Source: Geotalea daltonii FRC-32 (GTDB taxonomy: Bacteria; Desulfobacterota; Desulfuromonadia; Geobacterales; Geobacteraceae). Taken from it: a stretch of 32,000 nt of DNA. Of the stretch, positions 11,215 to 32,000 are shown in pieces (positions within the stretch are counted from its first letter, which is position 1; every line of letters begins with the position of its first letter). The notes below the pieces were generated by a model. The model did not search any database and was not told the origin of the DNA. It saw only the letters and a program-made list of their open reading frames with translations. A program made the translations under genes and the position numbers. The stretch is from the NCBI RefSeq assembly GCF_000022265.1, contig NC_011979.1:1110001-1142000 (forward strand). Direction: 5' to 3'.

Positions 11215-11251
11215 GGAGGCGCGGTTTGTCAAATCGCGCCTCATTTTTTTT
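11215..11251 (+). terminator. rho-independent terminator candidate
   Basis: GGAGGCGCG (11215-11223) pairs with CGCGCCTC (11235-11242), followed by ATTTTTTTT. Confidence 0.55.
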
Positions 11252-11265
11252 CACAGGGCATTGAA

Positions 11266-12225: not shown

Positions 12226-12253
12226 TAAATATAGTTACGAAGGATAATAAAAT

Positions 12254-13051: not shown

Positions 13052-13240
13052 GAAAAACGATCCTTTTTCGCCCTGGCGGTGTCAATCTTCGGACTTGCTT
13101 GTGCGGCGTACTGGTGTACGCCTCCGCGCAATCTCTCGATTTCCTTGCCAGAACGAAAAATCCCTCGTTTTTATGCTAGCGGTATTCCAGCTCTTCTGCC
13201 ATTGATGCAGGAAACACTACTTTTTCGGGAGGATGTACAA

Positions 13241-14089
13241 ATGCAAACTGTTTTCAGATCTGTACTTCTTTTAGTGGCATCGCTTTTTACCTTCGGCTGT
13301 GCCCAGAATTTTTACAATGTTCCCAGGGACGTCTACGAAAAACAGGTGCGTACTCTGGGGGTAGCGCCGATTTTTGTGGATGGCGGTTCAGACATCCAGC
13401 ATCCGGAAAAGGATGCAGTTGTGAACCTGCTCCGGGAAAACAATCGCAAGAACGAAAAGGAACTGGTGGCGCAACTCAGGGAGACCGGGACTTACTTTGC
13501 CGTGCGACTGCTGGAAGATGATGCCGATCAGCTTTTTTCAACGCTCCTGTCGCGTCGAGAACGGCGCGACGACGCGGGGGTAAAATACAACAAGTATTTC
13601 TTCAAGCCTGAAGAGCTGAAGAACCTGATCGCCAAAAACGGCGTCGATGCCCTCATGCTGGTGACAATTAACGGCCTTACCAGGCCGGAAAAAATCTACT
13701 CAAGCAACCTCCTTTCCTACCTGGACAGCGATTACAACTACCTGGCAGTTTCCGCCCAGATCATGGATGCCGATGGCAACACCCTCTGGGAATACCCCAA
13801 TTTCCGCCAGCGCTCCCTCACCTATCCGATGCTGTTCTCACTCCAGTATCCTGATTTTGATGAAGCTGCAGCCAACGAAAGCGACAGGGTCGAGGTAAGG
13901 TTCAAGACCATTGCCGGCATCGCCAGGGCTTTTGCCAAGATGGAATCCGCCAGCAAGGGCAAGGGGCAGGTTTCCATCCTTTACAATAATATCTTCGGCG
14001 ACATGGTTTCCCTGCAGGAGCCCGAGCGTAATTTCTTCGGCGGCAGGAAGTCGGACGATAAAGTACAGAAAGCTGCCGAACAGAAGTGA
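13241..14089 (+). CDS. putative lipoprotein, function unknown
   Basis: ATG at 13241 is preceded by GGGAGGA; the track start at 13079 lacks an RBS. N-terminus MQTVFRSVLLLVASLFTFGC has a lipobox-like FGC. Confidence 0.6.
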   Translation: MQTVFRSVLLLVASLFTFGCAQNFYNVPRDVYEKQVRTLGVAPIFVDGGSDIQHPEKDAVVNLLRENNRKNEKELVAQLRETGTYFAVRLLEDDADQLFSTLLSRRERRDDAGVKYNKYFFKPEELKNLIAKNGVDALMLVTINGLTRPEKIYSSNLLSYLDSDYNYLAVSAQIMDADGNTLWEYPNFRQRSLTYPMLFSLQYPDFDEAAANESDRVEVRFKTIAGIARAFAKMESASKGKGQVSILYNNIFGDMVSLQEPERNFFGGRKSDDKVQKAAEQK

Positions 14090-14150
14090 GGAATGGCTGA
14101 TGCCTGACAGAGATGGCCGCGGCAATAAAAAGAAAAAGGATTGAGATGTC

Positions 14151-14183
14151 AAACCCGCACTGTTCAGGTGCGGGTTTTCCTTT
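14151..14183 (+). terminator. rho-independent terminator candidate
   Basis: AAACCCGCAC (14151-14160), 7-nt loop, GTGCGGGTTT (14168-14177), then a T-rich tail. Confidence 0.55.
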
Positions 14184-14263
14184 ATCCGGACCAGGCTTGC
14201 AAAAGAGACATCGCCTGTTATGTTTAATGAAGCTTACTCTGCACAGTCACTGAGGGAACTGTT

Positions 14264-16567: not shown

Positions 16568-16575
16568 GGCTCCCC

Positions 16576-18567
16576 ATGAAGAATCCTCTCAGGCAAATCG
16601 GCAGCATCCCGGCCCCGGCCTGGCGGGGCCTGATCGGCATGCTCGTCACTGTCCTCATGGTGGTGTTGATGCTCCGCCAGTTCTACCCCCTGGAACTGCT
16701 GGAGATGAAACTTTTCGACACCGGCTTCAAGCTCCGCGGCGCCGTCACCTCTCCCGAAGCTGTCGCCATTGCCGAAATAGACGAAAAAAGCCTGCAGAAA
16801 ATCGGCCGCTGGCCCTGGGATCGGTCAGTGATGGCCCGTCTGGTGGATCGCCTTGCCGAGGCTAATGTCGCCGTCATTGCCTTCGATGTCATTTTTTCGG
16901 AAGCCGATGAAAGCGACCCCCTCTTTGCCAAAGCCATCAGCAGGGCCGGCAATGTCATCCTTCCCATAGTGTTCGATTTTCACGGGTCTCCAGCCGGTAA
17001 ACCGGATCCGCTTCTTGATACCTCCTCCTATAGCAACATTAAAAATCGGCACCTTCTGAATGATTTTGTTCCCCCCTCGGCAAATAGGGTCAATCTCCCT
17101 GTTCCAGCATTGAGCCATGAAGCCATGGGCTTTGGCCACATCAGCATGCTCCCGGACAGCGACGGCACCATGCGCTGGGAGCCGCTCGTCGTCTCCTGCG
17201 GTGGCCGCTACTTTTCCCCCCTTGGGTTGCAGGCGGCAGCCTATTTCCTCGGCGTGCCCCCGGAAAGCATCACCGTCAGGGCAACGGAGTCAGTTACCGT
17301 CGGACAGACTGTCATTCCTACCGATGTCTGGGGACGCACCATCATCAACTATTATGGCCCCGGCGGCTCCTTTCCCCATTATTCCATCAGCGACATCCTC
17401 GACGGTACCGTCCCGGCGAAGCAGCTTGAGAACCGGGTCATCCTGATCGGAGCTACCGCTCCCGGCATCTATGACCTGCGGGTAACCCCCATGGCGGCGG
17501 CCATGCCCGGGGTCGAAAAACATGCCGCCATCGCTGCCTCCATCATAGATCGTTCCTTCATCCGCAAAGTATCTGGTATTGCCGATCTGGCGGTACTTAT
17601 CGGCAGCGGCCTGCTCCTGACACTGATCCTCAGCCGGCGGAAGATCGTCGGTGCCATAACGGCAACGGCTGTAGGTATGCTGGCACTCTTCATCTCCGGC
17701 TACCTGCTCTTCAGCCTGAAGGGCATCTGGCTCAATCTGGCCTATCCCAGCAATAACCTGCTCTTCATCTTCATCGGCGTTACTGCCTTCAACTATGCCT
17801 TCGAGGAGCAGCGGGCCAGGAAAATCAGGGCCATGTTCTCCAACTATGTCACCCGCACCATCGTCAACGAGCTGATTGACAACCCGGAGATGGCGAAGCT
17901 TGGGGGGGAGCGGCGAGAGGTGACGGTGCTGTTCAGCGACCTGGTGGGGTTTACCACCTTTTCCGAGCAGCACTCGCCCGAGGAGGTGGTGGCGATCCTC
18001 AATGAATACCTGGGGGCAATGACCGACGTCATTCTCAAGTGGCAGGGGACCCTGGACAAGTTCATCGGCGACGCCATCGTCGTCTTCTGGGGGGCGCCCC
18101 TGCCGGCGGCGGACCACGCCGAGCGGGCCATCGGCTGCGCCGCGGAAATGGCCAGGGAGATGAAGCGATTGCGGGAAAAGTGGCTGGCGGAGGGAAAAAC
18201 GGCGCTCCACGCCGGCATCGGCATCAATACCGGCGAAGTGCTGGTGGGGAACATCGGCGCCCTGGGCAAGAAGATGGATTACACCGTCATCGGCGACCAG
18301 GTGAATCTTGGCTCCCGGGTGGAATCCCTGACCCGCCACTACCAAGTGCCGATCCTCATCACCGCCAACACCGTAGCCAAGCTCTGCGGTAGGGAGCCGG
18401 ATGTAAGGTTGTCAGGGCTGTCCATCCACGGTATTGAACGGGTGATTGTCAAGGGGAAGGAAGAGCCGGTTGGACTTTACCGCCTGGAGGAACAGCCGGA
18501 CCCCTCCCAGTCCCTTGTTATCGAAGACTGCCCCGAGGGGGCGGTGGTTCGATTTGCGGAGAAATGA
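16576..18567 (+). CDS. CHASE2 sensor domain - transmembrane - class III adenylate/guanylate cyclase
   Basis: ATG at 16576 lies 8 nt after the GspE stop; the track start at 16402 would overlap GspE by 166 nt. The CHASE2 signature is IAEIDEKSLQKIGRWPWDRSVMARLVDRL...IAFDVIFSE. Cyclase motifs are VTVLFSDLVGFT, KFIGDAIVVFWGAP and YTVIGDQVNLGSRVE. Confidence 0.85.
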   Translation: MKNPLRQIGSIPAPAWRGLIGMLVTVLMVVLMLRQFYPLELLEMKLFDTGFKLRGAVTSPEAVAIAEIDEKSLQKIGRWPWDRSVMARLVDRLAEANVAVIAFDVIFSEADESDPLFAKAISRAGNVILPIVFDFHGSPAGKPDPLLDTSSYSNIKNRHLLNDFVPPSANRVNLPVPALSHEAMGFGHISMLPDSDGTMRWEPLVVSCGGRYFSPLGLQAAAYFLGVPPESITVRATESVTVGQTVIPTDVWGRTIINYYGPGGSFPHYSISDILDGTVPAKQLENRVILIGATAPGIYDLRVTPMAAAMPGVEKHAAIAASIIDRSFIRKVSGIADLAVLIGSGLLLTLILSRRKIVGAITATAVGMLALFISGYLLFSLKGIWLNLAYPSNNLLFIFIGVTAFNYAFEEQRARKIRAMFSNYVTRTIVNELIDNPEMAKLGGERREVTVLFSDLVGFTTFSEQHSPEEVVAILNEYLGAMTDVILKWQGTLDKFIGDAIVVFWGAPLPAADHAERAIGCAAEMAREMKRLREKWLAEGKTALHAGIGINTGEVLVGNIGALGKKMDYTVIGDQVNLGSRVESLTRHYQVPILITANTVAKLCGREPDVRLSGLSIHGIERVIVKGKEEPVGLYRLEEQPDPSQSLVIEDCPEGAVVRFAEK

Positions 18568-18865
18568 TTTTTGAAATGATCTCCGTAAATTTTCTACAAA
18601 TAGGTCCACTATTCGCTTTCGAATTTCCAAATATCCATCCTCGATTTTCCATTCTCTCGCTTCGATCCCTAAGTCCGACAGACTCCTAGCTGGCAGAGAT
18701 ATTCACTGACAACAAATAACCCTTCCTACCTTTATTCCTCCATATTTGATCAATTACTAAACCACTAAGTATAAAATTATTTTATTTTAAGAAGTCAAAT
18801 CTTTGAATCAATTCTACATGTTCTGGCAGCATTTAACCTATTGAATTAAAAAGATATTTATAAGT

Positions 18866-18905: not shown

Positions 18906-18985
18906 CCATTAATATTGATTTTCTCAGCATTATTGTGTATGCCGTCAAATTAGTTCTAAACCAAATAACCTTACAGGAGGGTGTA

Positions 18986-21900
18986 GTGAAGGGACTCAAA
19001 ACACTCTTTTTCTTTTTGTTCATTCTGATAAGTCATGCTCTGCCGTCTTTTGCAGATACTACGGTAGGAGGTGTCATTTCCACGGATACAACCTGGACTC
19101 TGGCCGGTAGCCCTTATAATGTCACTTCAACTGTTCAGGTGTATGGGACCAGTACCACAGCAGCTACCCTCACCATAGAACCTGGCGTTGTGGTTAAATT
19201 TGCTTCCAATACCGTATTGCAGATAGGAAGTGGTGCCAGTCAGGGAGCACTAATCGCAAAAGGGACGACGACAGAGAGAATTATCTTCACCCGAAGCGGC
19301 ACAACCGGTACATGGGCAGGTCTTACCTATTATGACGGCACTGTGGATGCAACCTCAGTAATCGAAAATGCCGATGTCCAGTACAATAGCGGGTTAAATA
19401 TCACATCTGCTTCGCCTGCTTTCAGAAACTGCACCCTAACTCACATGACGGGCTATGCTAGCTTTTCTAATAGTAATCCTGTGCTGGAGAATGTCGCTAT
19501 TACCAACAACAGCAGCTACGGCATCTACCTCAACTCCTCATCGCCCATCATTACCGGCGGCAGCTTAACCAACACCAGCACCACCGGCCATGGCATTTAT
19601 GGCAGCGGCTCTCCAACATTTTCCAATTACAGCGTCTCCATCGTCAACAGTGCAGGCAAATATGGGCTCTATCAAAGCAGTACGACCTCAGCCCTTAGTG
19701 TTACCAACTCTACCATCGCCAATGGCATTTACCTTGGCTCCACCGGCATCATCCCGACTATCACTGGCAACACCTTCACTAATTTGGATAACTCCCCCCT
19801 TCATGCGGGAGCCAATATCATTGCCCAGATCATCGCCAACAACACCCTGACCGGCCAGACCTTTGCCGGCAAGATCGAGGTGGTAGGCGAGCAGATAAAC
19901 AGGGACACACTGTGGCGGAAACAGATTGCGCCTTATGTGATTTCAGGAGCCATTTACGTATACAAAGATACCATTTCGCCTGCTACTCTGACTATCGAGC
20001 CAGGAACAACAATTAAATTATTTGCAGGCGGTAGCGGGCTATACATAGGAAGTGGTGCCAATCAAGGGGCACTAATCGCAAAAGGGACGACGACGGAAAG
20101 GATTACATTTACCCGGAGCGGCACTAGCGGTACATGGGCAGGCCTTACCTATTATGACGGGGCTGTGGATGCAACATCAGTAATCGAGAATGCCGACATC
20201 CAATATACCACCGGCTTTAGTATCAACTCCGCTTCACCTGTTTTTAGAAACTGCACCATAACAGACATGACGGGCTATGCTAGCTTTTCTAATAGTAACC
20301 CGGTGCTGGAGAATGTCACTCTTACCAACAACGGCAGCTACGGTATCAATCTTTCTGCCTCATCGCCCATCATTACCGGTGGCAGCCTAACCAACACCAA
20401 CACCAACACCACCGGCCATGGTATTTATGGCAACGGGGCACCGGTCATTACGAATTACAATGTCTCTATGGTCAATAGCACTGGCAAGTACGGCCTTTAC
20501 CTGAACAGTTCCACTTCAATGTTGTCAGTCACGAACTCAACCATTGCCAATGGCATCTACCTCGCATCCACCGGCATTACCCCGACCGTTACCGGCAATA
20601 CCTTCACTAATCTGGATAGCTCTCCGATCCATGTAGGGGCGAACATAGTCGGGCAGCTTATAGCCAACAACGCCCTAACTGGCCTTACTTCAGGCGGCAG
20701 AATCGAGATCGTGGGCGAACAGGTGAACCGTAATGTAACCTGGAGCCCACTGGCAGCTCCGTATCACGTGGTCTCCGGCACTGTTTCCGTCTACAACACC
20801 ACGACAACCGCCTCGACCTTGACCATTGCACCGGGAACCGTCATCAAGTTTGCGACCAGCACCGGACTTCAGATCGGCAGTGGCACGAACCAGGGGGCAT
20901 TGATAGCCCAGGGAACACCATCAAATCGTATCACCTTCACCCGAAGCGGCATCAGCGGTACATGGGCAGGCCTTACCTATTATGACGGCACTGTGGATGC
21001 AACATCAGTAATCGAAATTGCCGACATTCAATATACCACCGGCTTTAGTATCAACTCCGCTTCACCTGTTTTTAGAAACTGCACCATAACAGACATGACG
21101 GGCTATGCTAGCTTTTCTAATAGTAACCCGGTGCTGGAGAATGTCACTCTTACCAACAACGGCAGCTACGGTATCAATCTTTCTGCCTCATCGCCCATCA
21201 TTACCGGTGGCAGCTTAACCAATACCAACACCACCGGTCATGGCATTTACGGAAGCGGCTCTCCAACAGTTTCCAATTACAGCGTCTCCATCGTCAATAG
21301 CACTGGCAAGTACGGCCTTTACCTGAACAGTTCCACTTCAATGTTGTCAGTCACGAATTCAACCATTGCCAATGGCATCTACCTCGCATCCACCGGCATC
21401 ACCCCTACCATCACCGGCAATACCTTCAGCAATGGGGATAATTCGCCACCCCATGCAGGGGCTGCCTTGATAAACCGGATTTTGTCTGAAAACACCTTCA
21501 GCGGACTTACCGCAACCGGCAAAATCGAGGTTGTCGGGGAGTATCTGACGCAAAACACTCTTTGGAAGAAGTGGGTAGCACCATATATTGTTCTCGGCAA
21601 TGTCTATGTTTTTAAGGACACCGTCACCACCGCTACCCTGACCATCGATCCGGGAGTCGTGGTGAAATTTAACACAAACACCTCGCTGCAGATTGGTTCG
21701 GGATCTTCCAGGGGGTCCATCATTGCCGATGGAGGGACGGCAGCGATCACCTTTACTTCCAGTCAGGGTACGCCTACTGCCGGAAGCTGGTCGGGTATAA
21801 CCTTCTCCGGTGACTCTGCCAGCGGCAGTATATTGAATAACATTGTCGTCGAATACGGAGGCTCAGGAGGGTACTACAATAACGCAAACGTTGTCTTTAA

Positions 21901-24391
21901 TTCTTCTTCGCCAGTGATCCGTAATTCCACAATCAGAAACAGTGCCGGAAGCGGCATCTATGTATATGGTGCACAAAACATCCCTCAGGTGGTTGGTTGC
22001 ACGGTTACAGCCAACAAGTGGGGTGTTTATGCCACTTCTTCAAACCCTTACATCGTCAATTCACGAATCTACGGCAATTCCACCGCAGGTGTATGGAACA
22101 GTTCCACGACTGTAGATGTTGACGCAAGAAATAATTGGTGGGGGGCAGACTCCGGACCAACCCATGCAAGCAACCCTTCCGGCACCGGCAACAGCGTCAG
22201 CGACAAGGTACTCTACAATCCTTGGATTGGCCAGACTCCAGGGACTGGAGTGACTTTCAGCAATGTCAAGGTTTCGCCAGCAGCGTTCAATCCTGATGGG
22301 GATTATCTCACCTTCGGGGCATTCATCTCCGCCAATGCCAACTGGACCATCACTATCACCGACAGCGGAAATAACGTCGTCAGAATTTTCACCGGCTCCG
22401 GCACTTCCATCAGTCAGAGATGGTTTGGCGAAGACAGCCAGTCTGTGAAAGTAGCGGATGGAAATTATACCTACAAGATAGAAGCGGTAAATCCTGCGAC
22501 TTTGGAAGCGGCCTCTCCCTTACAAGGAACCGTAAAGGTATTCCGCCAACTTCCTGTGGCCATTCTCGATGTGCCGACTGATGATCAGATCTTTTCCGGC
22601 GGGACCATCGTCAATGTTACCGGCACCGCCTCCGATCCTACCGATTTCAAGAACTACACCCTTGAGTATGGGGCAGGAGACAACCCGATTTCCTGGAGTG
22701 CCCTTAGGAGCGCAACAGTTCCAGTGCAAGGTAACCTTTTGTATGCCTGGGACCTCACCAATGCCACTGGAGGCGTATACACCCTGCGCCTCACCGTCAC
22801 CGATAATGCCGGGAATGCAACAGTAAAAGCGGCACGCATCAGGCTCCTCTGGATTCAGAATGCAAATTCGTCGGAGACTTACCTTTCACCGAACGGCGAT
22901 GGTACCAAGGATTCGTCGCTACTTAGCGCGACGGCCAGCTACCCGGTCAATTGGTCCGTAACGTTAAGCAACTCAACCGGTACTGTAGTGAGGACTTTTA
23001 CTATGCCGGGAAGTTCTTCCTTCAGCCAGACTTGGGACGGCCGGGATTCAGGAAATGTTGTTGTTCCTGACGGCACATACACCTATACGTTTAATGCCCT
23101 TGATCCTGTGTCCTTACTTGGAGCTTCTCCCAAAACAGGTAACATAAAGGTAGATAGTACGCTGCCCACTGTTTCCGTAACGGCGCCATTTCCCGGCGGA
23201 ATGCTGCAGAACACCGTAACCATCACCGGAACGGCAGCGGATACCAATTTGGATAACTACACAGTGGAGTATGGGTTAGTGTCGAGTGCAGGGGCGTGGA
23301 CTCTCCTTGCTTCATCGGGCACGCCAGTTACCTCTGGCACTCTGGCCGTCTGGATAACCAATGATCTTAAGAACGTGGTCAAGCTGCAAAATGGTGACTA
23401 TCAGCTCAGATTGACTGCTGTGGATAAGGCGGGAAATAGCTCCATAACCACTATCCCGGTAACGGTGGATAATCTTATTCTTTCATCCATATCAGTCAGC
23501 CGGAACACCTTAAACACAGCTTTAGGTGAATCAACAACCATCCCGTTCACCATCAACCGCTCGGGTACTGTGACGCTGAATGTCATACCCGAGAAACTCG
23601 GCTCCAATGGCACTCCCGTATATCAAGCCTCAATAAACTGTCTTGCAGCCGGCAACTATGCCTTTACCTGGAACGGCGCCGACTCGACCGGTAAAACAGT
23701 ACCAGATGAAGCATATCTTTATATCCTGAATGCTGTCGACGGAACAAGAACCGACGGCTACTCTCCGCCATATCCGAACGGCCCCGGAAGTGTCACCTGT
23801 ACCCAGAGCACGTATAACCCTCTGAAGAATCTGCCCATGACGGTGACATATACTCCGTCGCTGCCATCTCGGATCAATATGAGCATTGCCTGGGGAACCA
23901 AAAGGTACAAGATGATGGATGCAGTGCCGACATTGGCAACAACCGGCACCTTTGATTGGTTCGGAATGGACCCTGCCCAGCAAATAATGGCCAATGGCGC
24001 TTTTGCAACCTGCACGGTTGCATCGCTTCTGCCGGAAAACTTCCTGATGACTATTGGAGACATGCCCAAAGTGACCATGTTGAAAACAGACCCTTATGAA
24101 ATTTCGCTTTCATATGGGCAGTTCACCAGAATAGAATACACAGTTTCCAGGGAATCGAATGTAACCATCAAGGTTGTCTCCCCAAGTGGTATTGCGGCAA
24201 CTCTGCAAAATAATCTGCTTCAGCCGGCAGGTACTTATGAAATGGAATGGACACTTGCCGATCTTAGTGATGCATTCGGGAAGAACTTTGCTGTATCGGA
24301 AGAGGGGGATTATGCTGTCAGCATACATGCGACCAATCCCGTTACCGGCACTTACTCAATCACAAAAGGCAACCTTAGGGTCGGGCTTTGA
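18986..24391 (+). CDS. giant secreted protein: four right-handed parallel beta-helix (CASH/NosD-like) modules followed by FlgD-Ig-like and Ig-like beta-sandwich modules
   Basis: GTG at 18986 lies 6 nt after AGGAGG. Signal peptide is VKGLKTLFFFLFILISHALPSFA|DT. Repeated beta-helix rungs are present (NCTIT, NSNPVLENV, SSPIITGG, NSTIANGIYL) with an NNWWG cap. FlgD-Ig-like blocks are present (FNPDGDY..., LSPNGDGTKD...WDGRDSGNVVVPDGTYTY). Confidence 0.8.
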   Translation: MKGLKTLFFFLFILISHALPSFADTTVGGVISTDTTWTLAGSPYNVTSTVQVYGTSTTAATLTIEPGVVVKFASNTVLQIGSGASQGALIAKGTTTERIIFTRSGTTGTWAGLTYYDGTVDATSVIENADVQYNSGLNITSASPAFRNCTLTHMTGYASFSNSNPVLENVAITNNSSYGIYLNSSSPIITGGSLTNTSTTGHGIYGSGSPTFSNYSVSIVNSAGKYGLYQSSTTSALSVTNSTIANGIYLGSTGIIPTITGNTFTNLDNSPLHAGANIIAQIIANNTLTGQTFAGKIEVVGEQINRDTLWRKQIAPYVISGAIYVYKDTISPATLTIEPGTTIKLFAGGSGLYIGSGANQGALIAKGTTTERITFTRSGTSGTWAGLTYYDGAVDATSVIENADIQYTTGFSINSASPVFRNCTITDMTGYASFSNSNPVLENVTLTNNGSYGINLSASSPIITGGSLTNTNTNTTGHGIYGNGAPVITNYNVSMVNSTGKYGLYLNSSTSMLSVTNSTIANGIYLASTGITPTVTGNTFTNLDSSPIHVGANIVGQLIANNALTGLTSGGRIEIVGEQVNRNVTWSPLAAPYHVVSGTVSVYNTTTTASTLTIAPGTVIKFATSTGLQIGSGTNQGALIAQGTPSNRITFTRSGISGTWAGLTYYDGTVDATSVIEIADIQYTTGFSINSASPVFRNCTITDMTGYASFSNSNPVLENVTLTNNGSYGINLSASSPIITGGSLTNTNTTGHGIYGSGSPTVSNYSVSIVNSTGKYGLYLNSSTSMLSVTNSTIANGIYLASTGITPTITGNTFSNGDNSPPHAGAALINRILSENTFSGLTATGKIEVVGEYLTQNTLWKKWVAPYIVLGNVYVFKDTVTTATLTIDPGVVVKFNTNTSLQIGSGSSRGSIIADGGTAAITFTSSQGTPTAGSWSGITFSGDSASGSILNNIVVEYGGSGGYYNNANVVFNSSSPVIRNSTIRNSAGSGIYVYGAQNIPQVVGCTVTANKWGVYATSSNPYIVNSRIYGNSTAGVWNSSTTVDVDARNNWWGADSGPTHASNPSGTGNSVSDKVLYNPWIGQTPGTGVTFSNVKVSPAAFNPDGDYLTFGAFISANANWTITITDSGNNVVRIFTGSGTSISQRWFGEDSQSVKVADGNYTYKIEAVNPATLEAASPLQGTVKVFRQLPVAILDVPTDDQIFSGGTIVNVTGTASDPTDFKNYTLEYGAGDNPISWSALRSATVPVQGNLLYAWDLTNATGGVYTLRLTVTDNAGNATVKAARIRLLWIQNANSSETYLSPNGDGTKDSSLLSATASYPVNWSVTLSNSTGTVVRTFTMPGSSSFSQTWDGRDSGNVVVPDGTYTYTFNALDPVSLLGASPKTGNIKVDSTLPTVSVTAPFPGGMLQNTVTITGTAADTNLDNYTVEYGLVSSAGAWTLLASSGTPVTSGTLAVWITNDLKNVVKLQNGDYQLRLTAVDKAGNSSITTIPVTVDNLILSSISVSRNTLNTALGESTTIPFTINRSGTVTLNVIPEKLGSNGTPVYQASINCLAAGNYAFTWNGADSTGKTVPDEAYLYILNAVDGTRTDGYSPPYPNGPGSVTCTQSTYNPLKNLPMTVTYTPSLPSRINMSIAWGTKRYKMMDAVPTLATTGTFDWFGMDPAQQIMANGAFATCTVASLLPENFLMTIGDMPKVTMLKTDPYEISLSYGQFTRIEYTVSRESNVTIKVVSPSGIAATLQNNLLQPAGTYEMEWTLADLSDAFGKNFAVSEEGDYAVSIHATNPVTGTYSITKGNLRVGL
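19067..21535 (+). repeat. three in-frame tandem repeats of 819/828/822 bp inside the giant gene
   Basis: Units start at 19067, 19886 and 20714; the degenerate fourth module starts at 21536. 20201-20386 and 21029-21214 are identical over 186 bp by my base-by-base reading. Confidence 0.9.
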
Positions 24392-24451: not shown

Positions 24452-25156
24452 ATGAGGATGATTGGAATCAAGATAATATTATTTATTTTGCTCTGGCTGG
24501 CCTTTGCCTCTTTGACTTCTGTCACGCCTGCTTATGCAGTTACTCCCTGTCAGAGTATCCAGCAGCAGGTAGACTTGTATTTGAATAACCCCCCAAGCAT
24601 ATATTGCAAATACACTCCCGAGTTCGGGGAGTCGGAAGTAAAGATTTGGCGGGATTGTGATTATCGGCCGGCAGCTATTAAAACAGTTACCTATTCACCT
24701 GGCACTATAAATTATACCCAAAGTGGTACAGTAACCTGTTGCTATCCGGACCGTAACTGCTATCTTCCTGAGAATCAATATAAAGATACCTATACGAACA
24801 CTTATTACAAGACCATTGTAAAGAATGAATACTGTGATGGACACATTACAACCAATGAATATTCATACGGTATGAATTGGATATATAACTATGCTTCATA
24901 CACTGGATATTGTGCTACCCCTGGCAGTAGCAATTTACAGACTTATGTTGTGCCTCAACATGAGGATTCTGCGGCATATTGTGCGTCTCAAGTAACGCGC
25001 TATCTCTATACCACCATATCCATTCCGGCTAATTGTAATGACTGTTATGATTCTTCCGACCCCTGTTGCGGCAGCACCGATAAATGTTGTGGCAAGGGCC
25101 CCTGTTGTGGTGATCCCTGCTGTGGTGATGTCTGCTGCCAGAACCAAGGGGAATAG
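24452..25156 (+). CDS. secreted Cys/Tyr-rich protein with C-terminal (CC-x3-4)5 tail; unknown family
   Basis: GGAGA RBS 6 nt upstream. Signal peptide ends PAYA|VTPCQ. The mature part has 21 Cys, and the tail is PCCGSTDKCCGKGPCCGDPCCGDVCCQNQGE. It lies 60 nt after the giant gene and 68 nt before the RHS gene. Confidence 0.7.
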   Translation: MRMIGIKIILFILLWLAFASLTSVTPAYAVTPCQSIQQQVDLYLNNPPSIYCKYTPEFGESEVKIWRDCDYRPAAIKTVTYSPGTINYTQSGTVTCCYPDRNCYLPENQYKDTYTNTYYKTIVKNEYCDGHITTNEYSYGMNWIYNYASYTGYCATPGSSNLQTYVVPQHEDSAAYCASQVTRYLYTTISIPANCNDCYDSSDPCCGSTDKCCGKGPCCGDPCCGDVCCQNQGE

Positions 25157-25224: not shown

Positions 25225-28200
25225 ATGCTCAGATGGTCAAAGAATTTTTCTCATAGTTTTTGTTTTCTTTTAACAATTACATCACTGTCGGTGTTTCCTG
25301 TTTGTGCCCATGCAGGAACGGATGCGAAAAGTGCCGACGAAGCCGCTATCCAAGCTCTCAGCGCAGAAGGCAGCGATGCTGGCACCAACAATCCCGCCTA
25401 TGCCGGCAAACCTGTAAGTCTAAATGGCGGTGCAGAAACATTTCAACGGACAGACCTGACCTTAGGCAATCTGTTACCCATCAGCATCAAGCGCCGTTAC
25501 AACAGCAAATCAGGTTATGACAGCCCCTCCGGCTACGGCTGGGCGCACAACTACGACAAGCGCCTGTACACCTATTCCGACGGATCAGTAGTCATTCGCA
25601 AAGAGACCGGCTGGAAGCGTCAGTTTACTCCATCAGGAGTAGGATTTATCACCCCTGTCGGTGAGACCGGAATCCTTACCATCAACCAAGACGGCAGCTA
25701 CACCTATACGGAAAAAGACGGCGGCAAAGAACTTTATGATCCGAAGGGCCGTTTAGTGAAAATGACAGATCCCAATGGGAGTTACCTGATTCTCAGCTAC
25801 GAATCTGCCACCAGGTTCAGTCTGTGGGGCCTCCTTCCTTGGAATATCAATCAGACGAATCCCCTGAAGGTCGCCTATGACTATCATCTGAGCAGGATCG
25901 ATGAATTCACCCCCTCCGGAACCACCACCGGCGCATGGGTCACCTTCCAGTACGACACATCTACCGGCAGGCTTACCAGCATCAGTGACAGCCTGGGAAG
26001 AAACGTCACCTATGGGTACGACACCATCGGCAACCTTGCCTCAGTTGTCACGCCCCTTAGCTCCGCCCAGTATGCATACACAGACCCCACCAACAAGCAC
26101 CTGATGACCACGGTCGACGAAGGAGACGGCCCTTATGCAAACACCTACGACAAGGCCGGACGAGTCGTTCGCCAGACCCACGGCACAGGGCAGATCGACA
26201 TCGAATACACCGTCCCCAGAAAAACAACCAAAGTCACCACCACCATAAAAGATGGCACCGGTCTGTTGCTCAATACCAACATCCGCACCGTCGAGTTCGA
26301 CGACAATGGCCAGGTAGCCAAAGAAACAGACACATTGGGCAACGTGACCACATATATCCGTAATCAACAGACCTGGATCACCCGCAAAGAGCAGTGGGAG
26401 AATACCGGCACCATAGCCAGTCCGACGCTCGTACTGAAAGCAGCCATAAATTATACCTACGACAGCATCGGCAATGTACTTACCAGCACTCAGGCGCCGG
26501 GCACACCCCAAGAAAAGCAAGCTATCTATACCTACGACCCCACCTTCAATCATCAAACCAGCGAAAGCGCAGCCAGCGTCGTCAACCCGGCAATCAGCAA
26601 GATAACCAGCCATACTTACGACAGCAAAGGCAATCGCCAGAGCACCACCGAGACCGGCCTGCTCGGAGATGGCACCCCATACAGCTACGCCACTACCTAT
26701 GAAAACGATGCCAATGGCAGAGTGACAAGGATCGACGGCCCCCGCACCGACGTGCAGGACGTCACTACCTTTACCTATGACGCCAACGGCAATATGCTGA
26801 CAAAGACCGAAGCCTTAATCGGCACCACCCGTTATGACAACTACGACGCCCTGGGCAACCCAGGCACCATTACCGATCCAAACGGCAATGCCACCACCTA
26901 CACCTATGACACCGCAGGCAGGGCACTATTCGTCAAAGCCCCCGGAGACATAAACCCCACCGAATACACCTATACCACCGGCGGGTGTGGCAGCTGCGGC
27001 GGATCAACCAACCGCATCGCCTCCATCATCCAGCCCGAAGGAAACCGTATCGACTATACCTATGACACCAACGGCAAACTGACCAAGATTGCCGATAGCC
27101 AGAATAACAGCATCAACTACAGCTACGACAGCGAAGGGAACAAACTGAAAGAAGAGATCAAAGATCCGTCAGGCATCCTGCAAAAGACCATCAGCTACCA
27201 ATACGACGTCATCAACCGCCTCAAGCAGATCAAAAACCCCGATGCCACCTACACCGAATTCGGCTACGACGCCCTCGGCAACCGAACCAGCAGCAAAGAC
27301 CCCAAACAAAACCTGACCACCAGCCAGTACGACGCCCTGAGCCGCCTCACCGCCACCATCCAGCCCGGCAATGTCACCACCGGCTTCACTTACGATACAA
27401 ATAACAACCTGACCACCGTAACCGACGCCAACAGCAACAGCACCACCTACAAATACGACGATCTGGGCAGGGTCTACCAGACCATCTCCCCTGATACCAA
27501 CACCACCACCTACAGTTATGACCCTGCAGGCAATCTCAAAACCAAGACCGACGCAAAAGGCATTATCATTGCTTACACCTACGACGACGCCAATAGGCTC
27601 ACCAGAACAAGCTTCCCCACAGACCCCGCCATCACCTACAGCTACGACACCTGTATAAATGGCAAGGGAAGAGTCTGCACCATCACCGACCAGAGCGGCA
27701 CAACCACCTACGAGTACACCAAGAAGGGACAGATAGCCAAAGAGACCAGAACCATCGACGGCATTGCCTACATCACCCAGTACACCTACGACATGAACGG
27801 CAACACGAAAACGATCATCTACCCGAGCGGCAGGGTTATCACCTACAGCTACAGCAACGACAAGCCTACCACCGTCAGCAGTACCTACGCAGGCATAACC
27901 ACCACAATAGCAAACAACATAAGTTACAAACCCTTCGGCGGGATGACAGCACTTACCTACGGCAACGGTTTAGCAAGAACCATCACCTACGACAACCAGT
28001 ACCGCATCAGCACCATGATTACCGGCACCCTGCAAAACCTCACTTACGGCTACGACGCCAACGGCAACATCACCGCTATCACCAATACTCTCGACAATAC
28101 CAAGAACAAGAGTTATACCTACGACAGCCTCGACCGGCTCGGCAGCGGCACCGGCCCATGGGGCACCATCACCTGGACATATGACGGCGTCGGCAACAGG

Positions 28201-29271
28201 CAAACCCAGATCGACAGCAGCGGCACCAGCAGCTACAGCTATCAGTCCGGCAGCAACAGGCTAACAGGAATCACAGGAGCAAACCCAGCAACCTTCGGCT
28301 ACGACACCAACGGCAACACAGCAACTGAAAACGGCAAGATCTACACCTATAACCAGAATCAGCGATTGATCCAGGCAGCAGCAAATGAGACCGGCAGCTA
28401 CAGTTACAACGCCCAGGGCCAACGCACCAAGAAGACCGTCAATGGCGTCACCACCTATTTCATCTTCGACCAGCAAGGGCAACTGTTAACCGAATCAGCC
28501 ACCAATGGCACACAAGCGGAATACATCTACCTGAGCAACCAGCCACTGGCCAAGATCGACGCCACCGGCACGAACTATGTCCACACCGATCATCTGGGCA
28601 CGCCTACCATGATGACCGATGCGGCCGCAACAAAAGTTTGGGAGATAGAGGCCAGACCATTCGGGGACAGTGCAAACATTACCGGCACAGCCTCTCTTAA
28701 TCTTCGCTTCCCAGGCCAGTACGCAGATAGTGAATCAGGGTTAAACTACAATTACTTCAGGGATTACAATCCAGGCATTGGTAGGTATATCCAAGCTGAT
28801 CCGGTTGGGCTAGATGAGGGCGTCACTCTGTTCATTTATTCTGGTAACGATCCCATTTTGAACGAAGATCCTCTAGGTTTGTGGGTAAAAAGGTGTTCGA
28901 GAGCACTTGGGAATAAAAATAAACCTAAGACTTCCAAATACAACCCTTTAAGGCATGACTACTTGAGTGTAAGCGGTACATTCGTTGGATTTCAGAGGGG
29001 TAGCAACATGCTTTGGAGTAAAGGAAGGGTAGATGTAGGTAAGGATAAAGAAGAAGATAACGGCAAATGCCATACTACAATTTGTAGTGATGACAGATTC
29101 GATAAGTATGTTATGGCGTTTGTGGACTATGCTCCAACTTATTGCATAGCAGCTAACCCAGACACAATACAACATGCTGCTGGTGCCAGAAACTGCCAAA
29201 CTTGGGCAGATACAGTTATAAAAAAGGCAAAAGAGAATTACAGAAAGAATGAAACCTGCCCAAAGTGCTAA
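25225..29271 (+). CDS. RHS/YD-repeat protein with N-terminal Sec signal peptide and C-terminal polymorphic toxin domain
   Basis: AGGAGG RBS. Signal peptide ends CAHA|GTD. Dozens of YD repeats follow the pattern YxYDxxGNxxxxxD. The RHS-associated core end reads PGQYADSESGLNYNYFRDYNPGIGRYIQADPVGL...NEDPLGL. Confidence 0.92.
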   Translation: MLRWSKNFSHSFCFLLTITSLSVFPVCAHAGTDAKSADEAAIQALSAEGSDAGTNNPAYAGKPVSLNGGAETFQRTDLTLGNLLPISIKRRYNSKSGYDSPSGYGWAHNYDKRLYTYSDGSVVIRKETGWKRQFTPSGVGFITPVGETGILTINQDGSYTYTEKDGGKELYDPKGRLVKMTDPNGSYLILSYESATRFSLWGLLPWNINQTNPLKVAYDYHLSRIDEFTPSGTTTGAWVTFQYDTSTGRLTSISDSLGRNVTYGYDTIGNLASVVTPLSSAQYAYTDPTNKHLMTTVDEGDGPYANTYDKAGRVVRQTHGTGQIDIEYTVPRKTTKVTTTIKDGTGLLLNTNIRTVEFDDNGQVAKETDTLGNVTTYIRNQQTWITRKEQWENTGTIASPTLVLKAAINYTYDSIGNVLTSTQAPGTPQEKQAIYTYDPTFNHQTSESAASVVNPAISKITSHTYDSKGNRQSTTETGLLGDGTPYSYATTYENDANGRVTRIDGPRTDVQDVTTFTYDANGNMLTKTEALIGTTRYDNYDALGNPGTITDPNGNATTYTYDTAGRALFVKAPGDINPTEYTYTTGGCGSCGGSTNRIASIIQPEGNRIDYTYDTNGKLTKIADSQNNSINYSYDSEGNKLKEEIKDPSGILQKTISYQYDVINRLKQIKNPDATYTEFGYDALGNRTSSKDPKQNLTTSQYDALSRLTATIQPGNVTTGFTYDTNNNLTTVTDANSNSTTYKYDDLGRVYQTISPDTNTTTYSYDPAGNLKTKTDAKGIIIAYTYDDANRLTRTSFPTDPAITYSYDTCINGKGRVCTITDQSGTTTYEYTKKGQIAKETRTIDGIAYITQYTYDMNGNTKTIIYPSGRVITYSYSNDKPTTVSSTYAGITTTIANNISYKPFGGMTALTYGNGLARTITYDNQYRISTMITGTLQNLTYGYDANGNITAITNTLDNTKNKSYTYDSLDRLGSGTGPWGTITWTYDGVGNRQTQIDSSGTSSYSYQSGSNRLTGITGANPATFGYDTNGNTATENGKIYTYNQNQRLIQAAANETGSYSYNAQGQRTKKTVNGVTTYFIFDQQGQLLTESATNGTQAEYIYLSNQPLAKIDATGTNYVHTDHLGTPTMMTDAAATKVWEIEARPFGDSANITGTASLNLRFPGQYADSESGLNYNYFRDYNPGIGRYIQADPVGLDEGVTLFIYSGNDPILNEDPLGLWVKRCSRALGNKNKPKTSKYNPLRHDYLSVSGTFVGFQRGSNMLWSKGRVDVGKDKEEDNGKCHTTICSDDRFDKYVMAFVDYAPTYCIAANPDTIQHAAGARNCQTWADTVIKKAKENYRKNETCPKC
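28882..29268 (+). other. 129-aa C-terminal toxin domain of the RHS protein (after DPLGL, residues 1220-1348)
   Basis: It begins right after the DPLGL motif (28867-28881). The DNA turns AT-rich here, unlike the RHS core. It contains RHDYLSVSG and ARNCQTWAD (His-then-Cys order) plus CHTTIC and CPKC. Confidence 0.7.
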
Positions 29272-29281
29272 CGGAGGAACA

Positions 29282-29704
29282 ATGGCAGAAATTAAAGAAC
29301 TAATACTTGCTTTGTTTTTTGCACAAACTATTATACTGACCCAATCACCAATTTCAATCAGTGAAAATTGGACAGATGTGCCACTCAACAAGCCGTTAAA
29401 GGTAATAAATGAAGGTGCAACATTGTATGTAGATGTTACAGAAATATCGAAACTAGAAAGAAATATAGAAAAACTAGATAAGATGTTCCCAAAACATTGT
29501 CTTATTGCGATATTGCAAGACAAAAATGGACAGAGTTTCACTTTTATGAACGAAAGTGCCTACTCGTTTACCAATAAGAACACTTCACTCATATTAGTCA
29601 GCAGTAGCAGGCTAGATAAAAAAACACCGTTTATCAAGCTGAAAGTCAAAAGTTCTGTCAGGTTAAAAAATGTCAAAATTAGTTGGTCTAACTACGAGAA
29701 GTAA
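29282..29704 (+). CDS. candidate cognate immunity protein (140 aa) with N-terminal hydrophobic segment
   Basis: ATG at 29282 is preceded by GGAGG, 10 nt after the RHS stop. It has the same AT-rich composition as the toxin domain. The N-terminus is MAEIKELILALFFAQTIILTQSP. The position is typical of RHS immunity genes. Confidence 0.55.
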   Translation: MAEIKELILALFFAQTIILTQSPISISENWTDVPLNKPLKVINEGATLYVDVTEISKLERNIEKLDKMFPKHCLIAILQDKNGQSFTFMNESAYSFTNKNTSLILVSSSRLDKKTPFIKLKVKSSVRLKNVKISWSNYEK

Positions 29705-29724: not shown

Positions 29725-29750
29725 CCTGTAAAATCGTTTGTGTAAATGGC
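29725..29750. repeat. IS256-family left inverted repeat
   Basis: CCTGTAAAATCGTTTGTGTAAATGGC compared with the reverse complement of the right end, CCTGTAAATAATTTTGTGTAAATGGC. Confidence 0.75.
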
Positions 29751-29784
29751 CATATTCGGTTATCACCAACCGAAGGAGAAACTG

Positions 29785-31000
29785 ATGGCCACTACCGACG
29801 AACTGCTTGATGCACTGATGAAAGACTACAAGAAGCCCGAAGACCTAATTGGCGAGAATGGGCTTCTGAAACAACTGACCAAGAAGCTGCTGGAGCGGGC
29901 AATGCAGGCCGAGATGACCGAGCATCTAGGCTACGAGAAGCACGCCCCCAACGGAGCCAACAGCGGTAACTCCCGCAATGGCAGCTACAAGAAGACGGTC
30001 AAAGGAGATTTCGGCAACCTTGAAATGACAGTCCCTCGGGACCGCCAGTCATCCTTCGAGCCGATCATCGTCCCCAAAGGAGAGAGCCGCTTTACCGGCT
30101 TCGATGACAAGATCATCTCCATGTATGCCCGTGGCATGACCACGCGGGATATTCAGGGGCACCTGGAGGAAATCTACGGTGTAGAAGTCTCCCCAACCCT
30201 GGTATCACAGGTCACCCAAGCCGTTACCGAAGAAATTACCCTATGGCAGAATCGCCCGCTTGATGACGTGTACCCGATCATGTACCTCGATGCCGTGCGG
30301 GTTAAAGTCAGGCACGAAGGACGGGTGATCAACAAAGCTGTTTACCTGGCCATTGCCGTTACCTTCACCGGGGTCAAAGAAAGTCCTCGGCATGTGGACT
30401 GCCGAAACCGAGGGTGCCAAGTTCTGGCTCCAGGTAGTTACGGAACTGAAGAACCTAGGCGTCAAGGACATCTTCATCGCCTGCGTCGATGGACTCAAAG
30501 GCTTCCCTGAGGCCATCGAAGCGGTATTTCCTAAAACCCAGGTTCAGCTCTGCATCGTCCACATGGTGCGCCACAGCCTGAATTACGTGTCCTGGAAGCA
30601 GCGCAAGGAAGTTGCCGACGATCTGAAGCAGATCTACCAGGCAGCAACCCTGCAGCAGGCCGAAGCGAATCTGGAAGCATTCGAAACCAAGTGGAGTGCC
30701 ACCCATCCGACCATCGGCAAATCGTGGTGCAGGAACTGGGAGCGGATCATTCCCTTCTTCTCCTATCCGCCTGAAATCCGGAAAGCCATTTATACAACCA
30801 ACGCCATAGAATCGCTGAACATGTCGCTGCGGAAGGTCACCAAGAACCGGGCATCATTCCCAAACGACGAAGCTATGCTGAAACTGCTCTACCTAGCCCT
30901 GAAGAACATCGAGAAAAAGTGGACTATGCCGATCAGAGACTGGAAATCGGCACTCAACCAGTTCACCATTATGTTTGAAGAAAGAATGCCTGCTCTTTAA
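29785..31000 (+). pseudogene. IS256-family transposase split into two frames by a +1 frameshift
   Basis: The N-terminal part MATTDELLDALMKDYKKPEDLIGENGLLKQLTKKLLERAMQAEMTEHLGYEKH... runs in the frame of 29746..30510. The C-terminal part ...KKVLGMWTAETEGAKFWLQVVTELKNLGVKDIFIACVDGLKGFPEAI... runs in the next frame (30353..31000). Removing one G from GGGG at 30370-30373 would join them as AVTFTG-SKKVLGMW. Confidence 0.75.
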
Positions 31001-31007
31001 ACCGAAA

Positions 31008-31033
31008 GCCATTTACACAAAATTATTTACAGG
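31008..31033. repeat. IS256-family right inverted repeat
   Basis: GCCATTTACACAAAATTATTTACAGG is the reverse-complement partner of 29725-29750. Confidence 0.75.
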
Positions 31034-31100
31034 ACCCCCCAGCGGGTTTCACTTTTTTCCTAAAAACAACTTTGTCGATTTAATAATTCCTTTCCTGGTT

Positions 31101-31343
31101 GTGTGGGCTGCCTCCTTTGTTTATACCGGCATAATAGGCGGGATACTTTGGATGCCTTTACATAAATTTAAATCAGACAACATTCTAACATACATCCTTA
31201 TTGCCATTGTATTCACATCTTTATTGTCACTTGGCACGAATCATGGTGTATCGCTATTGGGGATAGGCATGAGTTCAACAAATGCAATAATGATAAGATT
31301 GCTAGAAATTAAGATATTCAAACTCAGTAATAAAGCCACCTGA
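31101..31343 (+). CDS. small hydrophobic (2-3 TM) ORF; true start uncertain and possibly truncated by the IS
   Basis: The frame is open from inside the IS (30975) to 31343. The part outside the IS (31034 onward) has no convincing RBS; the first in-frame start outside the IS is GTG at 31101. An open frame of about 100 codons in very AT-rich DNA is unlikely by chance. Confidence 0.25.
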   Translation: MWAASFVYTGIIGGILWMPLHKFKSDNILTYILIAIVFTSLLSLGTNHGVSLLGIGMSSTNAIMIRLLEIKIFKLSNKAT

Positions 31344-31450
31344 CAGCCTGGCTCCGATATCGGAAAGTGAGCCTTTTTCATCAGCGTCTAAGCCCCCATC
31401 AGGAGCTTTGCACTGGCACAGGACTCAAAATATTAGAAACAGAGGTGCTC

Positions 31451-32000
31451 ATGGTGATTTTTAATATGAGAGCAATAATAGTCGTGGCTGCATTGCTTCA
31501 AGCAGTGCCAGTATATGCCGATACTCCGTGCCAAGCTCTTCAACGACAACTAGATTACTATTTACATGACATTATTGGTTGTCACTATACTGCGGAGTAT
31601 AGTGATAGAAATATAAATATCTATAAAGAATGTGATCCACCACCAACCGTCAAAACTATCACTTATTCAGCCGGTGGAGTCACTCGCACTGTAACTGATA
31701 CAGCACAATGCTGTAGTAAATCTCCTTGTTATGAACGAGATAGGTATTATGAGGAATTTACCACCATTTATTACAACACTCGGGTTGAATACGCATATTG
31801 TGATAACACTTCAACAGTTGAAGAATTCGGGTATGGAGCTTTTCCTGAATATCCATTCGTGTCTTCAGCAATATGTGGCATAACATATCCTATTAGACCA
31901 CCCACTGTTTTAACTTATGGTTGTCCAAGTCCCCAAAAAACCTTAGAGGCAACCTTAGATATCCCACCCGAATGTAAGTGTTTAGATCCGAATGATCCTT
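31451..32000 (+). CDS. paralogue of the Cys/Tyr-rich secreted protein (24452..25156); 3' end cut by the window edge
   Basis: Not in the ORF track because it has no stop in the window. My translation gives MVIFNMRAIIVVAALLQAVPVYA|DTPCQALQRQLDYYL...KTITYS...CC...YCD...YG...IPPECKCLDPNDP, 183 codons with no stop. It aligns with PAYA|VTPCQSIQQQVDLYL...KTVTYS...CC...YCD...YG...IPANCNDCYDSSDP. Confidence 0.7.
   Translation, partial: MVIFNMRAIIVVAALLQAVPVYADTPCQALQRQLDYYLHDIIGCHYTAEYSDRNINIYKECDPPPTVKTITYSAGGVTRTVTDTAQCCSKSPCYERDRYYEEFTTIYYNTRVEYAYCDNTSTVEEFGYGAFPEYPFVSSAICGITYPIRPPTVLTYGCPSPQKTLEATLDIPPECKCLDPNDP

Follow-up and report, generated by a model that had tools for sequence, protein, structure and literature searches.

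The 3´ end of an RHS gene in Geotalea daltonii FRC-32 carries what is very probably a toxin-immunity cassette, made up of a C-terminal toxin tip on the RHS carrier and the gene immediately downstream. The locus lies in a 32,000-nucleotide (nt) stretch of contig NC_011979.1 (positions 1,110,001 to 1,142,000 of the forward strand), which is referred to in its entirety as the window and numbered from its first letter. The tip comprises 129 amino acids (aa) and represents a family without earlier description; judged by its sequence it belongs to no named family, and no library that we searched has a name for it. Five residues are invariant in the family, and a conserved immunity partner accompanies it in other genomes. 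Modelling suggests a circularly permuted papain-like fold, in which Cys1324 and His1244 are likely to be the catalytic residues.

The RHS carrier and its cassette

The carrier (1348 aa; 25225..29271, forward strand) was delineated from the list of open reading frames (ORFs) and from Pfam and NCBIfam. It consists of a Sec-type signal peptide, DUF6531, approximately 20 RHS/YD repeats, an RHS core and the tip, with Pfam matches to RHS_repeat (1.1e-75), DUF6531 (3.5e-17) and RHS (4.1e-07) and NCBIfam matches to YD_repeat and Rhs_assc_core. The predicted signal peptide (25225..25314, forward strand) was read from the sequence as MLRWSKNFSHSFCFLLTITSLSVFPVCAHA followed by G, and the hydrophobicity of the N-terminus peaks at residues 12-30. 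The RHS-associated core domain (aa 1144-1219; 28654..28881, forward strand; TIGR03696, 2.8e-19) has the motif DPLGL at its end (aa 1215-1219; 28867-28881, forward strand). The tip (28882..29268, forward strand) follows directly, at the length given in an original prediction for this locus. Repeats and a core that ends in DPLGL just before the tip are the features of an RHS polymorphic toxin. Release of the tip by autoproteolysis after DPxGL is established for Rhs and Tc proteins.

Nucleotide composition changes sharply near the end of the gene. The G+C content (GC) is 54.0% in the RHS core (25601-28600), 40.5% in the tip and 33.3% in the downstream gene, and GC at third codon positions drops across the break from 0.6-0.77 to 0.27-0.44. 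The local counts behind the original prediction were reproduced (51.7% at 27361-27420 and 28.3% at 29281-29340) and the break is real, but it is not located exactly at DPLGL, as had been claimed. The maximum-likelihood position of a single change point is 28727 (log-likelihood ratio 37.7), approximately 140 nt upstream of the motif. The 2-lnL support interval, 28692..28856, covers positions 175 to 11 nt upstream of DPLGL and, together with the GC profile, marks the likely recombination junction of the cassette. The break thus falls in the final ~50 codons of the conserved core, as expected if cassettes are exchanged by recombination inside this conserved sequence. This fits the orphan cassettes in other genomes, which bring 40-90 core residues along ahead of DPxGL. 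The region 25900-28600 of the core also has extreme strand skews (GC skew to -0.44, AT skew to +0.54), both of which vanish where the GC breaks.

Searches with the tip, with the tip plus core and with a family profile gave no significant match in Pfam, NCBIfam or PDB sequences; profile matches to Toxoplasma NTPases among the PDB sequences (E 0.5-1.7) were judged to be noise. Relatives were found in large protein collections: a word-indexed search of 5.8 billion proteins gave 21, and scanning 1.84 billion cluster representatives exhaustively with HMMER gave 77 matching clusters, 54 of them at E <= 1e-10. The closest tip in the collections searched is 67% identical, and they hold no exact copy of the window protein. 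In one genome per species (185,579 species), 21 loci carry the tip. Its hosts are Lysobacterales/Xanthomonadales and, among other Gammaproteobacteria, Zooshikella and Aliikangiella; further hosts are the betaproteobacteria Massilia, Rhodoferax and Chitiniphilus, as well as Desulfosarcina cetonica and a metagenome-assembled genome of Chitinophagales. No plasmid relatives of the tip or the locus were found.

All carriers whose sequence was readable in full have the tip behind the DPxGL of an RHS/YD-shell protein. The carriers checked have a signal-like N-terminus and DUF6531, with no PAAR, VgrG, LXG or CdiA parts. Mobility of the tip is seen in the compositional break, in its presence on RHS proteins of several phyla and on a teneurin-like carrier, and in orphan arrays. 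In the loci L001 (6001-8110) and L002-L004 it is found both as a tandem pair of toxin-immunity modules, flanked by an integrase and a primase, and within arrays of orphaned C-terminal RHS fragments that adjoin IS1595. The bacterial teneurin-like carrier (P0048; 2609 aa, from a metagenome) has two CBM5/12 chitin-binding modules, TTR, FN-plug, an NHL propeller and a YD shell, and the CBM5/12 modules hint that some carriers of the tip bind chitinous surfaces.

The downstream gene (29282..29704, forward strand) starts 10 nt after the toxin stop codon, 5 nt behind a GGAGG ribosome-binding site, and encodes a protein of 140 aa. It is assigned as the cognate immunity gene by homology, as a homologue of ~140 aa with 19-34% identity is encoded directly downstream of the toxin in 18 loci. 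The immunity-like gene that accompanies RHS toxins is thus present, its protective role being read from homology and position. Members of this family share an invariant WxN(Y) at the C-terminus and, at the N-terminus, the strikingly conserved M..FFLILFFxxxxLLTPxPxD; apart from this one short hydrophobic stretch they are beta-rich, and the family has no Pfam or PDB relative. In the window protein, the N-terminus is as hydrophobic as the signal peptide of the carrier, and export, membrane anchoring or toxin binding are possible roles for the stretch. A Pfam match to IseA, an inhibitor of NlpC/P60 DL-endopeptidases, was at noise level (1 of 16 immunity homologues, E 0.044), did not recur and was not used as evidence. 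The GC steps, the same tip on other RHS/YD-shell carriers and in orphans, and the homologous downstream gene in 18 loci bear out the swapped toxin/immunity tip that was originally proposed.

Conserved residues and predicted fold

Conservation was counted over 63 full-length homologues of the tip, in which the mean column identity is approximately 36%. Only Cys1224, His1244, Cys1282, Asp1293 and Cys1324 are invariant (63/63), followed by the nearly invariant Tyr1306, Asn1323, Gly1267 and Val1331. His1244 (28954..28956, forward strand) and Cys1324 (29194..29196, forward strand) are 80 residues apart at the coordinates originally given. Their conservation is far beyond chance, and as they are invariant at this mean identity they constitute the true core of the domain. 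Cys1324 is part of an (N/D)C(Q)xW motif, being preceded by Asn in 58 and by Asp in 5 of the homologues. Cys1224 (28894..28896, forward strand), on strand 1 of the model described below, is a candidate disulfide partner of Cys1282 or a candidate active-site residue. Asp1293 (29101..29103, forward strand), in an FD motif that opens the helix after strand 5, is a candidate third catalytic residue.

The original prediction had pointed to CHTTIC (Cys1282 to Cys1287) and the terminal CPKC (residues 1345-1348; 29257..29268, forward strand), both of which are present, and had combined them into a possible zinc site with four Cys ligands. The pattern of conservation speaks against this. The CPKC knuckle is an optional module carried by ~60% of the family (CPxC in 38/63), and the short form of the domain stops before it. 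Cys1287 (29083..29085, forward strand) co-varies with it: all 38 members with CPxC have Cys at this position, as against 2 of the other 25. Cys1282 (29068..29070, forward strand), by contrast, is invariant even in those 25. CHTTIC and CPKC are consequently not one unit, since Cys1282 persists in the short form where Cys1287 and CPxC are missing. The ligands of such a site are neither conserved nor lost together; it is Cys1287, Cys1345 and Cys1348 that co-vary, and the likelier fourth member, as a possible ligand or partner, is Cys1307 of a TYC motif (29143..29145, forward strand; Cys in 26/38 members with CPxC and 1/25 without). From this sequence pattern, Cys1287, often Cys1307, and CPxC appear to make up an optional clamp of zinc-knuckle or disulfide type, and Cys1224 and Cys1282 are a separate invariant pair. 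Disulfides are as plausible as zinc in the tip, because the carriers are Sec-exported.

The fold and the positions of the residues within it are taken from models. The AlphaFold2 model of the tip, made from a 21-sequence alignment (pLDDT 91.4, pTM 0.86), has strands at 7-13, 29-35, 38-43, 54-58 and 68-73 (tip numbering). After these come one helix, then a short strand (at Tyr1306) and finally the long helix 110-128. According to DSSP, His1244, the predicted catalytic base, is the second residue of strand 2, and Cys1324, the predicted nucleophile, is the first residue of the long helix. For a short-form member (P0016), a model built on 54 sequences (pLDDT 88.4) shows the elements in this order too. 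A nucleophile placed at the N-terminus of a helix after a sheet is a hallmark of the circularly permuted papain/NlpC-P60 layout. At the level of secondary structure both models conform to this layout, with the Cys at the helix start and the His on a preceding strand of an antiparallel sheet, and the order of the conserved residues, His before Cys, is that of the permuted branch.

Comparisons of the tip model by Foldseek point to the same structural neighbourhood. In the PDB, the top three matches are picornavirus H-box/NC 2A proteins (7zu3, 8a2g and 7zua; E 0.57-1.6, TM-score 0.23-0.35), which are homologues of the lipid-modifying enzyme PLAAT3 (bioRxiv 10.1101/2024.04.06.588386). In a viral library, the matches are mostly picornavirus polyproteins of genera with H-box/NC 2A, together with hypovirus polyproteins, a PPPDE protein (E 0.086, TM-score 0.49) and an LRAT protein; the best of these matches have E 0.017-0.05, probability 0.97-0.99 and TM-score 0.51-0.53. 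When 21 members of the family were run through hmmscan against 24,736 Pfam models (E <= 10), only DUF6540 (11/21, best E 0.0012) and DUF2145 (6/21) recurred, always covering the helix-Tyr-NC region that includes Cys1324. Three family consensus sequences gave matches at E 0.004-0.05, with DUF6540 for all three and DUF2145 for two, in which this pair ranked at the top; the third, the long form, adds a chance match to Rad9. DUF6540 (PF20174) and DUF2145 (PF09916) are both classed as papain-like (PMC10318531), and as only ~105 of the 24,736 Pfam families are papain-like, their recurrence is unlikely to be due to chance. Finally, hhalign of a 59-sequence tip profile with an alignment of PLAAT3 matched the helix-xG..Y-...-NC(E/Q)x(F/W) region (P 0.056). 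A greedier alignment (P 0.025) paired His1244 with His23 and Cys1324 with Cys113 of PLAAT3, and set Gly1255 against its second catalytic His (His35). As a control of power, Tox-Act1 homologues were aligned with PLAAT3; these accepted relatives reach just P 0.0056, so the method is weak at such a distance.

Several results weigh against a papain-like assignment. All likeness of the tip to papain-like proteins is below threshold (best Foldseek E 0.017 in the viral library and 0.57 in the PDB, the latter with TM-score 0.35), and no PLAAT, LRAT, YiiX, DeSI or TseH structure is among the 50 PDB matches listed. The P0016 model gave only SH3-like noise against the PDB and no papain-like neighbours, and for this reason the structural evidence is coherent but not robust. 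The DUF6540 and DUF2145 scores of 13-18 bits are under the curated cut-offs of 25-27, and 3 of 60 column-shuffled profiles equal the score of the tip profile against PLAAT3. Profile searches of PDB sequences and of the 5.8 billion proteins gave no annotated family bridging the tip to others, although the latter search added relatives, and no in-register match to Tox-Act1 homologues was obtained with hhalign. A third catalytic residue of LRAT type, which in this superfamily orients the His from the next strand, is also missing, the position of the second His being Gly1255 (Ser in 38 and Gly in 24 of the 63); Asp1293, Cys1224 or Cys1282 may substitute for it. With all this taken together, we still consider a permuted papain-like fold with catalysis by Cys1324 and His1244 likely.

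The original prediction of an LRAT-like enzyme with the papain fold of NlpC/P60 proteins holds in part. Its His-then-Cys core stands, and the best evidence on the fold leads to the permuted group that contains LRAT and PLAAT; membership of LRAT does not follow, and the label is better read as a new family of the permuted papain-like branch. Neighbours of the anticipated kind (H-box/NC 2A, PPPDE and LRAT proteins) do appear in the structural searches, but at the scores given above and for one of the two models. The feature picked out by that prediction is real, and both the invariance and the fold neighbours indicate that the right residues and the right structural neighbourhood had been chosen.

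Related systems and alternative explanations

Among the closest known parallels is Tox-Act1 (STox_15). This permuted NlpC/P60 toxin, borne by PAAR proteins and by DUF6531+RHS proteins, acts as a phospholipase in the periplasm and requires His43 and Cys151 (PMC12994826). It has been grouped with TseH (DUF6695), DUF4105/Lnb, LRAT and YiiX (PMC12994826). The tip resembles Tox-Act1 and TseH in being the C-terminal domain of a polymorphic toxin (the DUF6531+RHS carriers of Tox-Act1 include E. coli QMP79959.1; S3 table, PMC12994826) and in having His before Cys, an H-box of the type H-x-[FY]-[VL]-S-[IV], an NC motif, an adjacent immunity gene and a predicted permuted papain fold. It differs in the His-Cys spacing (80 versus ~103-108), in its two extra invariant Cys residues and optional CPxC clamp, and in carriers with Sec signals instead of PAAR and type VI secretion (T6SS). 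The immunity proteins also belong to different families, ~140 aa with one N-terminal hydrophobic stretch here versus two transmembrane helices in Imm-Act1, the immunity protein of Tox-Act1 (PMC12994826). Membership of Tox-Act1 was rejected, as hhalign against an Aeromonas homologue (S3 table) alone and against a 7-sequence alignment that adds six plasmid homologues was off-register (P 0.06-0.07). In both runs, residues 1265-1282 of the tip (nt 29017-29070), sxGxvxxxExxdNxkC(1282), were placed on the catalytic GRxIDxYDvTGxNC of Tox-Act1, out of register with the AlphaFold2 model. This alignment may be due to chance, or it may hint at a location of Cys1282 near the active site.

LRAT/PLAAT (PF04970) resembles the tip in the order and type of its motifs (H-box ... 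NCxx[FW]) and in the order of secondary structure elements in the model. Membership was nevertheless rejected: the tip, the 21 members and the three consensus sequences had no match at E <= 10, the second catalytic His (His35) is replaced by Gly or Ser, and a C-terminal membrane anchor is missing. The tip further differs in its H-box (HDYLxVSG versus HxxxYxG), in an ~11-residue insertion ahead of the NC motif, and in being bacterial, secreted and paired with an immunity protein. The picornavirus H-box/NC 2A proteins, its top structural neighbours, are of similar size (~120-145 aa), but serve in viral replication and are not known to act as toxins. PPPDE/DeSI proteins (Peptidase_C97) share the permuted papain fold and the His...NC order; these are eukaryotic or viral isopeptidases outside any toxin/immunity context, and PF05903 gave no match at E <= 10 with the same queries. 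The alignment with DUF6540 and DUF2145 is confined to the C-terminal third, the Cys is replaced by Ser in DUF2145, and neither family has a known function. None of the profiles DUF4105, DUF6695, LRAT, Peptidase_C92 and Peptidase_C97 matched any member tested, and the tip is therefore in no named family and at best a new family of the same structural branch.

Two further assignments were tried and rejected. Tox-HDC, an RHS- and Sec-associated toxin domain with H, D and C residues, has an SGxH motif, folds as a Rossmannoid alpha/beta domain and lacks an immunity gene (Zhang et al., 2012; PMC3482391); the tip lacks the SGxH motif and a Pfam match, is modelled as an antiparallel sheet with helices, and has an immunity gene. 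A deaminase-like reading (H..E / PCxxC) was dismissed because the His belongs to a strand and CPxC is an optional motif at the very C-terminal end. As polymorphic toxins with a permuted NlpC/P60 domain are already known, the tip is a new branch and not a new kind.

In the mechanism that we propose, recombination would have joined a toxin-immunity cassette (the region 28.7-29.7 kb) to the 3´ end of an RHS gene whose product is exported through Sec. The RHS shell would enclose the C-terminal 129 residues until a cut after DPLGL frees the tip. The freed tip would fold as a circularly permuted papain-like domain of the NlpC/P60 branch that includes LRAT/PLAAT, H-box/NC 2A, PPPDE and Tox-Act1/TseH, with Cys1324 at the start of the long C-terminal helix as the predicted nucleophile and His1244 on strand 2 as the predicted general base. 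In place of the LRAT-type second His, Asp1293 or the Cys1224/Cys1282 pair may provide the third function, or the pair may form a structural disulfide, and Cys1287, in some members Cys1307, and CPKC may form an optional C-terminal clamp stabilized by metal or disulfides. The chemistry would be hydrolysis or transfer of acyl esters or amides, i.e. membrane lipids in target cells would be attacked in the manner of a phospholipase A, and the 140-aa product of 29282-29704 would protect the producer by blocking the toxin.

Catalysis, substrate and compartment we infer. Phospholipase-A-like chemistry appears the most likely kind by analogy, because every characterized bacterial toxin of the permuted branch acts in this way, and action in the envelope is favoured by the Sec signals of the carriers and the precedent of Tox-Act1. 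Against a lipid or envelope target stand the usual action of RHS tips in the cytoplasm (PMC12994826) and the N-terminus of the immunity protein, which is often charged in the middle of the stretch and has no clear cleavage site, signal peptide or lipobox. A further point against it is the absence of a membrane anchor on the toxin, which ends in ...NYRKNETCPKC with no hydrophobic tail. Phospholipase-like chemistry on acyl esters or amides in the target envelope is accordingly put forward tentatively, at somewhat less than an even chance. The complete explanation, comprising cassette, fold and lipid chemistry, we place only slightly above an even chance because its substrate and compartment are argued only from the parallel with Tox-Act1, TseH and PLAAT and from the Sec export of the carriers.

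The same fold and Cys-His chemistry could instead be directed at a peptide or isopeptide substrate, with the tip acting as a peptidoglycan amidase or endopeptidase (cf. Tae1) or as a PPPDE/DeSI-like isopeptidase or protease on a cytoplasmic protein. The PPPDE and hypovirus polyprotein matches rank beside those of LRAT type, and the His-Cys spacing of 80 is between that of PLAAT3 (90) and the ~70 of DeSI-type proteins. The cytoplasmic habit of RHS tips and the lack of a clear export signal on the immunity protein are in agreement with a target of this kind, and a Cys as third residue, for which the tip has two further invariant candidates, is precedented in Tae1 (PMC10318531). We regard this explanation as rather unlikely, since the characterized bacterial toxins of the permuted branch, Tox-Act1 and TseH, are lipases (PMC12994826), Pfam matches to NLPC_P60, CHAP and Peptidase_C97 are lacking, and the Sec-exported carriers point to an extracytoplasmic route. 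A different proposal retains the permuted papain fold and sets the tip apart as a separate toxin clade, in which the Cys-His dyad, the invariant Asp and the Cys pair replace the second His of LRAT. Delivery would be by Sec-exported RHS or teneurin-like proteins and not by T6SS, the chemistry would be other than phospholipase A (e.g. acyl transfer onto lipoproteins or lipopolysaccharide, or cleavage of lipid-linked envelope precursors), and the FFLILFF..LLTP.P peptide of the immunity protein would plug the acyl-binding groove. This is speculative, and we think it unlikely.

The tip could also be something other than a papain-like thiol enzyme. Cys1224, His1244, Cys1282 and Cys1324 are four invariant potential zinc ligands, accompanied by the optional CPxC knuckle, and could form a structural or catalytic C-H-C-C metal site, with activity residing elsewhere (e.g. 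at Asp1293) and the papain-like neighbours arising by chance. Every papain-like similarity is indeed statistically weak, the second model did not reproduce it, and it is Cys1282, not Cys1324, that hhalign twice put on the Cys of Tox-Act1. However, two confident models place Cys1324, within its N-C-Q-x-W motif, at the point where a long helix starts, a papain hallmark and not the context of a zinc ligand. The four residues are spread over 100 positions, three of them on strands 1, 2 and 5 and the fourth on a helix, and three independent weak signals (DUF6540/DUF2145, hhalign with PLAAT3 and the viral Foldseek matches) agree on superfamily and residue, making a metal site clearly improbable. Least probable by far is a decayed or non-enzymatic tip, such as a binding module on an RHS protein that serves in surface attachment or adhesion and is not a toxin. 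An insertion sequence directly downstream, the absence of encoded secretion machinery from the window, and nearest PDB matches (the H-box/NC 2A proteins) that are not known as enzymes would be compatible with it. Against this are an intact ORF, five residues invariant over 63 homologues from several phyla, and strict synteny with an immunity-like gene in 18 loci, which is the signature of an active toxin.

Surroundings of the cassette and implications

An insertion sequence of the IS256/Mutator family (29725-31033), with imperfect 26-nt terminal inverted repeats, begins 20 nt past the stop codon of the immunity gene. Its transposase is split over two overlapping ORFs (29746-30510 and 30353-31000, matching Pfam Transposase_mut positions 11-196 and 193-377) and is thus frameshifted, and its GC is 53% versus 33-40% on either flank. 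Downstream of the element (31001-32000), GC falls back to ~40%, and a very hydrophobic 122-aa ORF (30975-31343) begins within its end. This ORF could be the remnant of a further cassette or of an immunity gene broken by the insertion; no RHS-core motif or remnant was found downstream of the element in the window. On the other side of the RHS gene, a 234-aa ORF directly upstream (24452-25156; GC 43%) begins with a signal-like sequence and is very rich in Cys at its C-terminus (CCGSTDKCCGKGPCCGDPCCGDVCCQ), with no Pfam match and no counterpart in the loci related by the tip. The neighbouring gene (18935-24391) encodes an 1818-aa protein with 3-4 long internal right-handed beta-helix repeats followed by FlgD-Ig/PKD-like domains, and with an internal match to CHU_C, which resembles a type IX secretion signal. 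The remainder of the window (1-18600) consists of ordinary chromosomal genes for 4Fe-4S/NrfD-type oxidoreductase subunits, a GTP-dependent phosphoenolpyruvate carboxykinase, a PAS-GGDEF-EAL response regulator, a DegP-like protease, RluD, a GAF-MshE-type ATPase of type II secretion or type IV pili, and a CHASE2 adenylate cyclase. Genes for T6SS or other dedicated toxin export are absent from the window.

Lipid-targeting toxins with a permuted NlpC/P60 domain have been characterized only recently (Tox-Act1, 2024-2026). If our explanation is correct, the cassette described here represents a second such toxin family, unrelated in sequence and with an immunity family of its own. It is thinly spread over Gammaproteobacteria, Betaproteobacteria, Desulfobacterota and Bacteroidota and is carried on Sec-exported RHS cages. 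The general picture of polymorphic toxins would be unchanged, with the tip providing a handle on RHS toxins that are independent of T6SS. With 129 aa and five invariant residues it is a compact candidate enzyme, and may present a case of replacement of the third catalytic residue within the superfamily.

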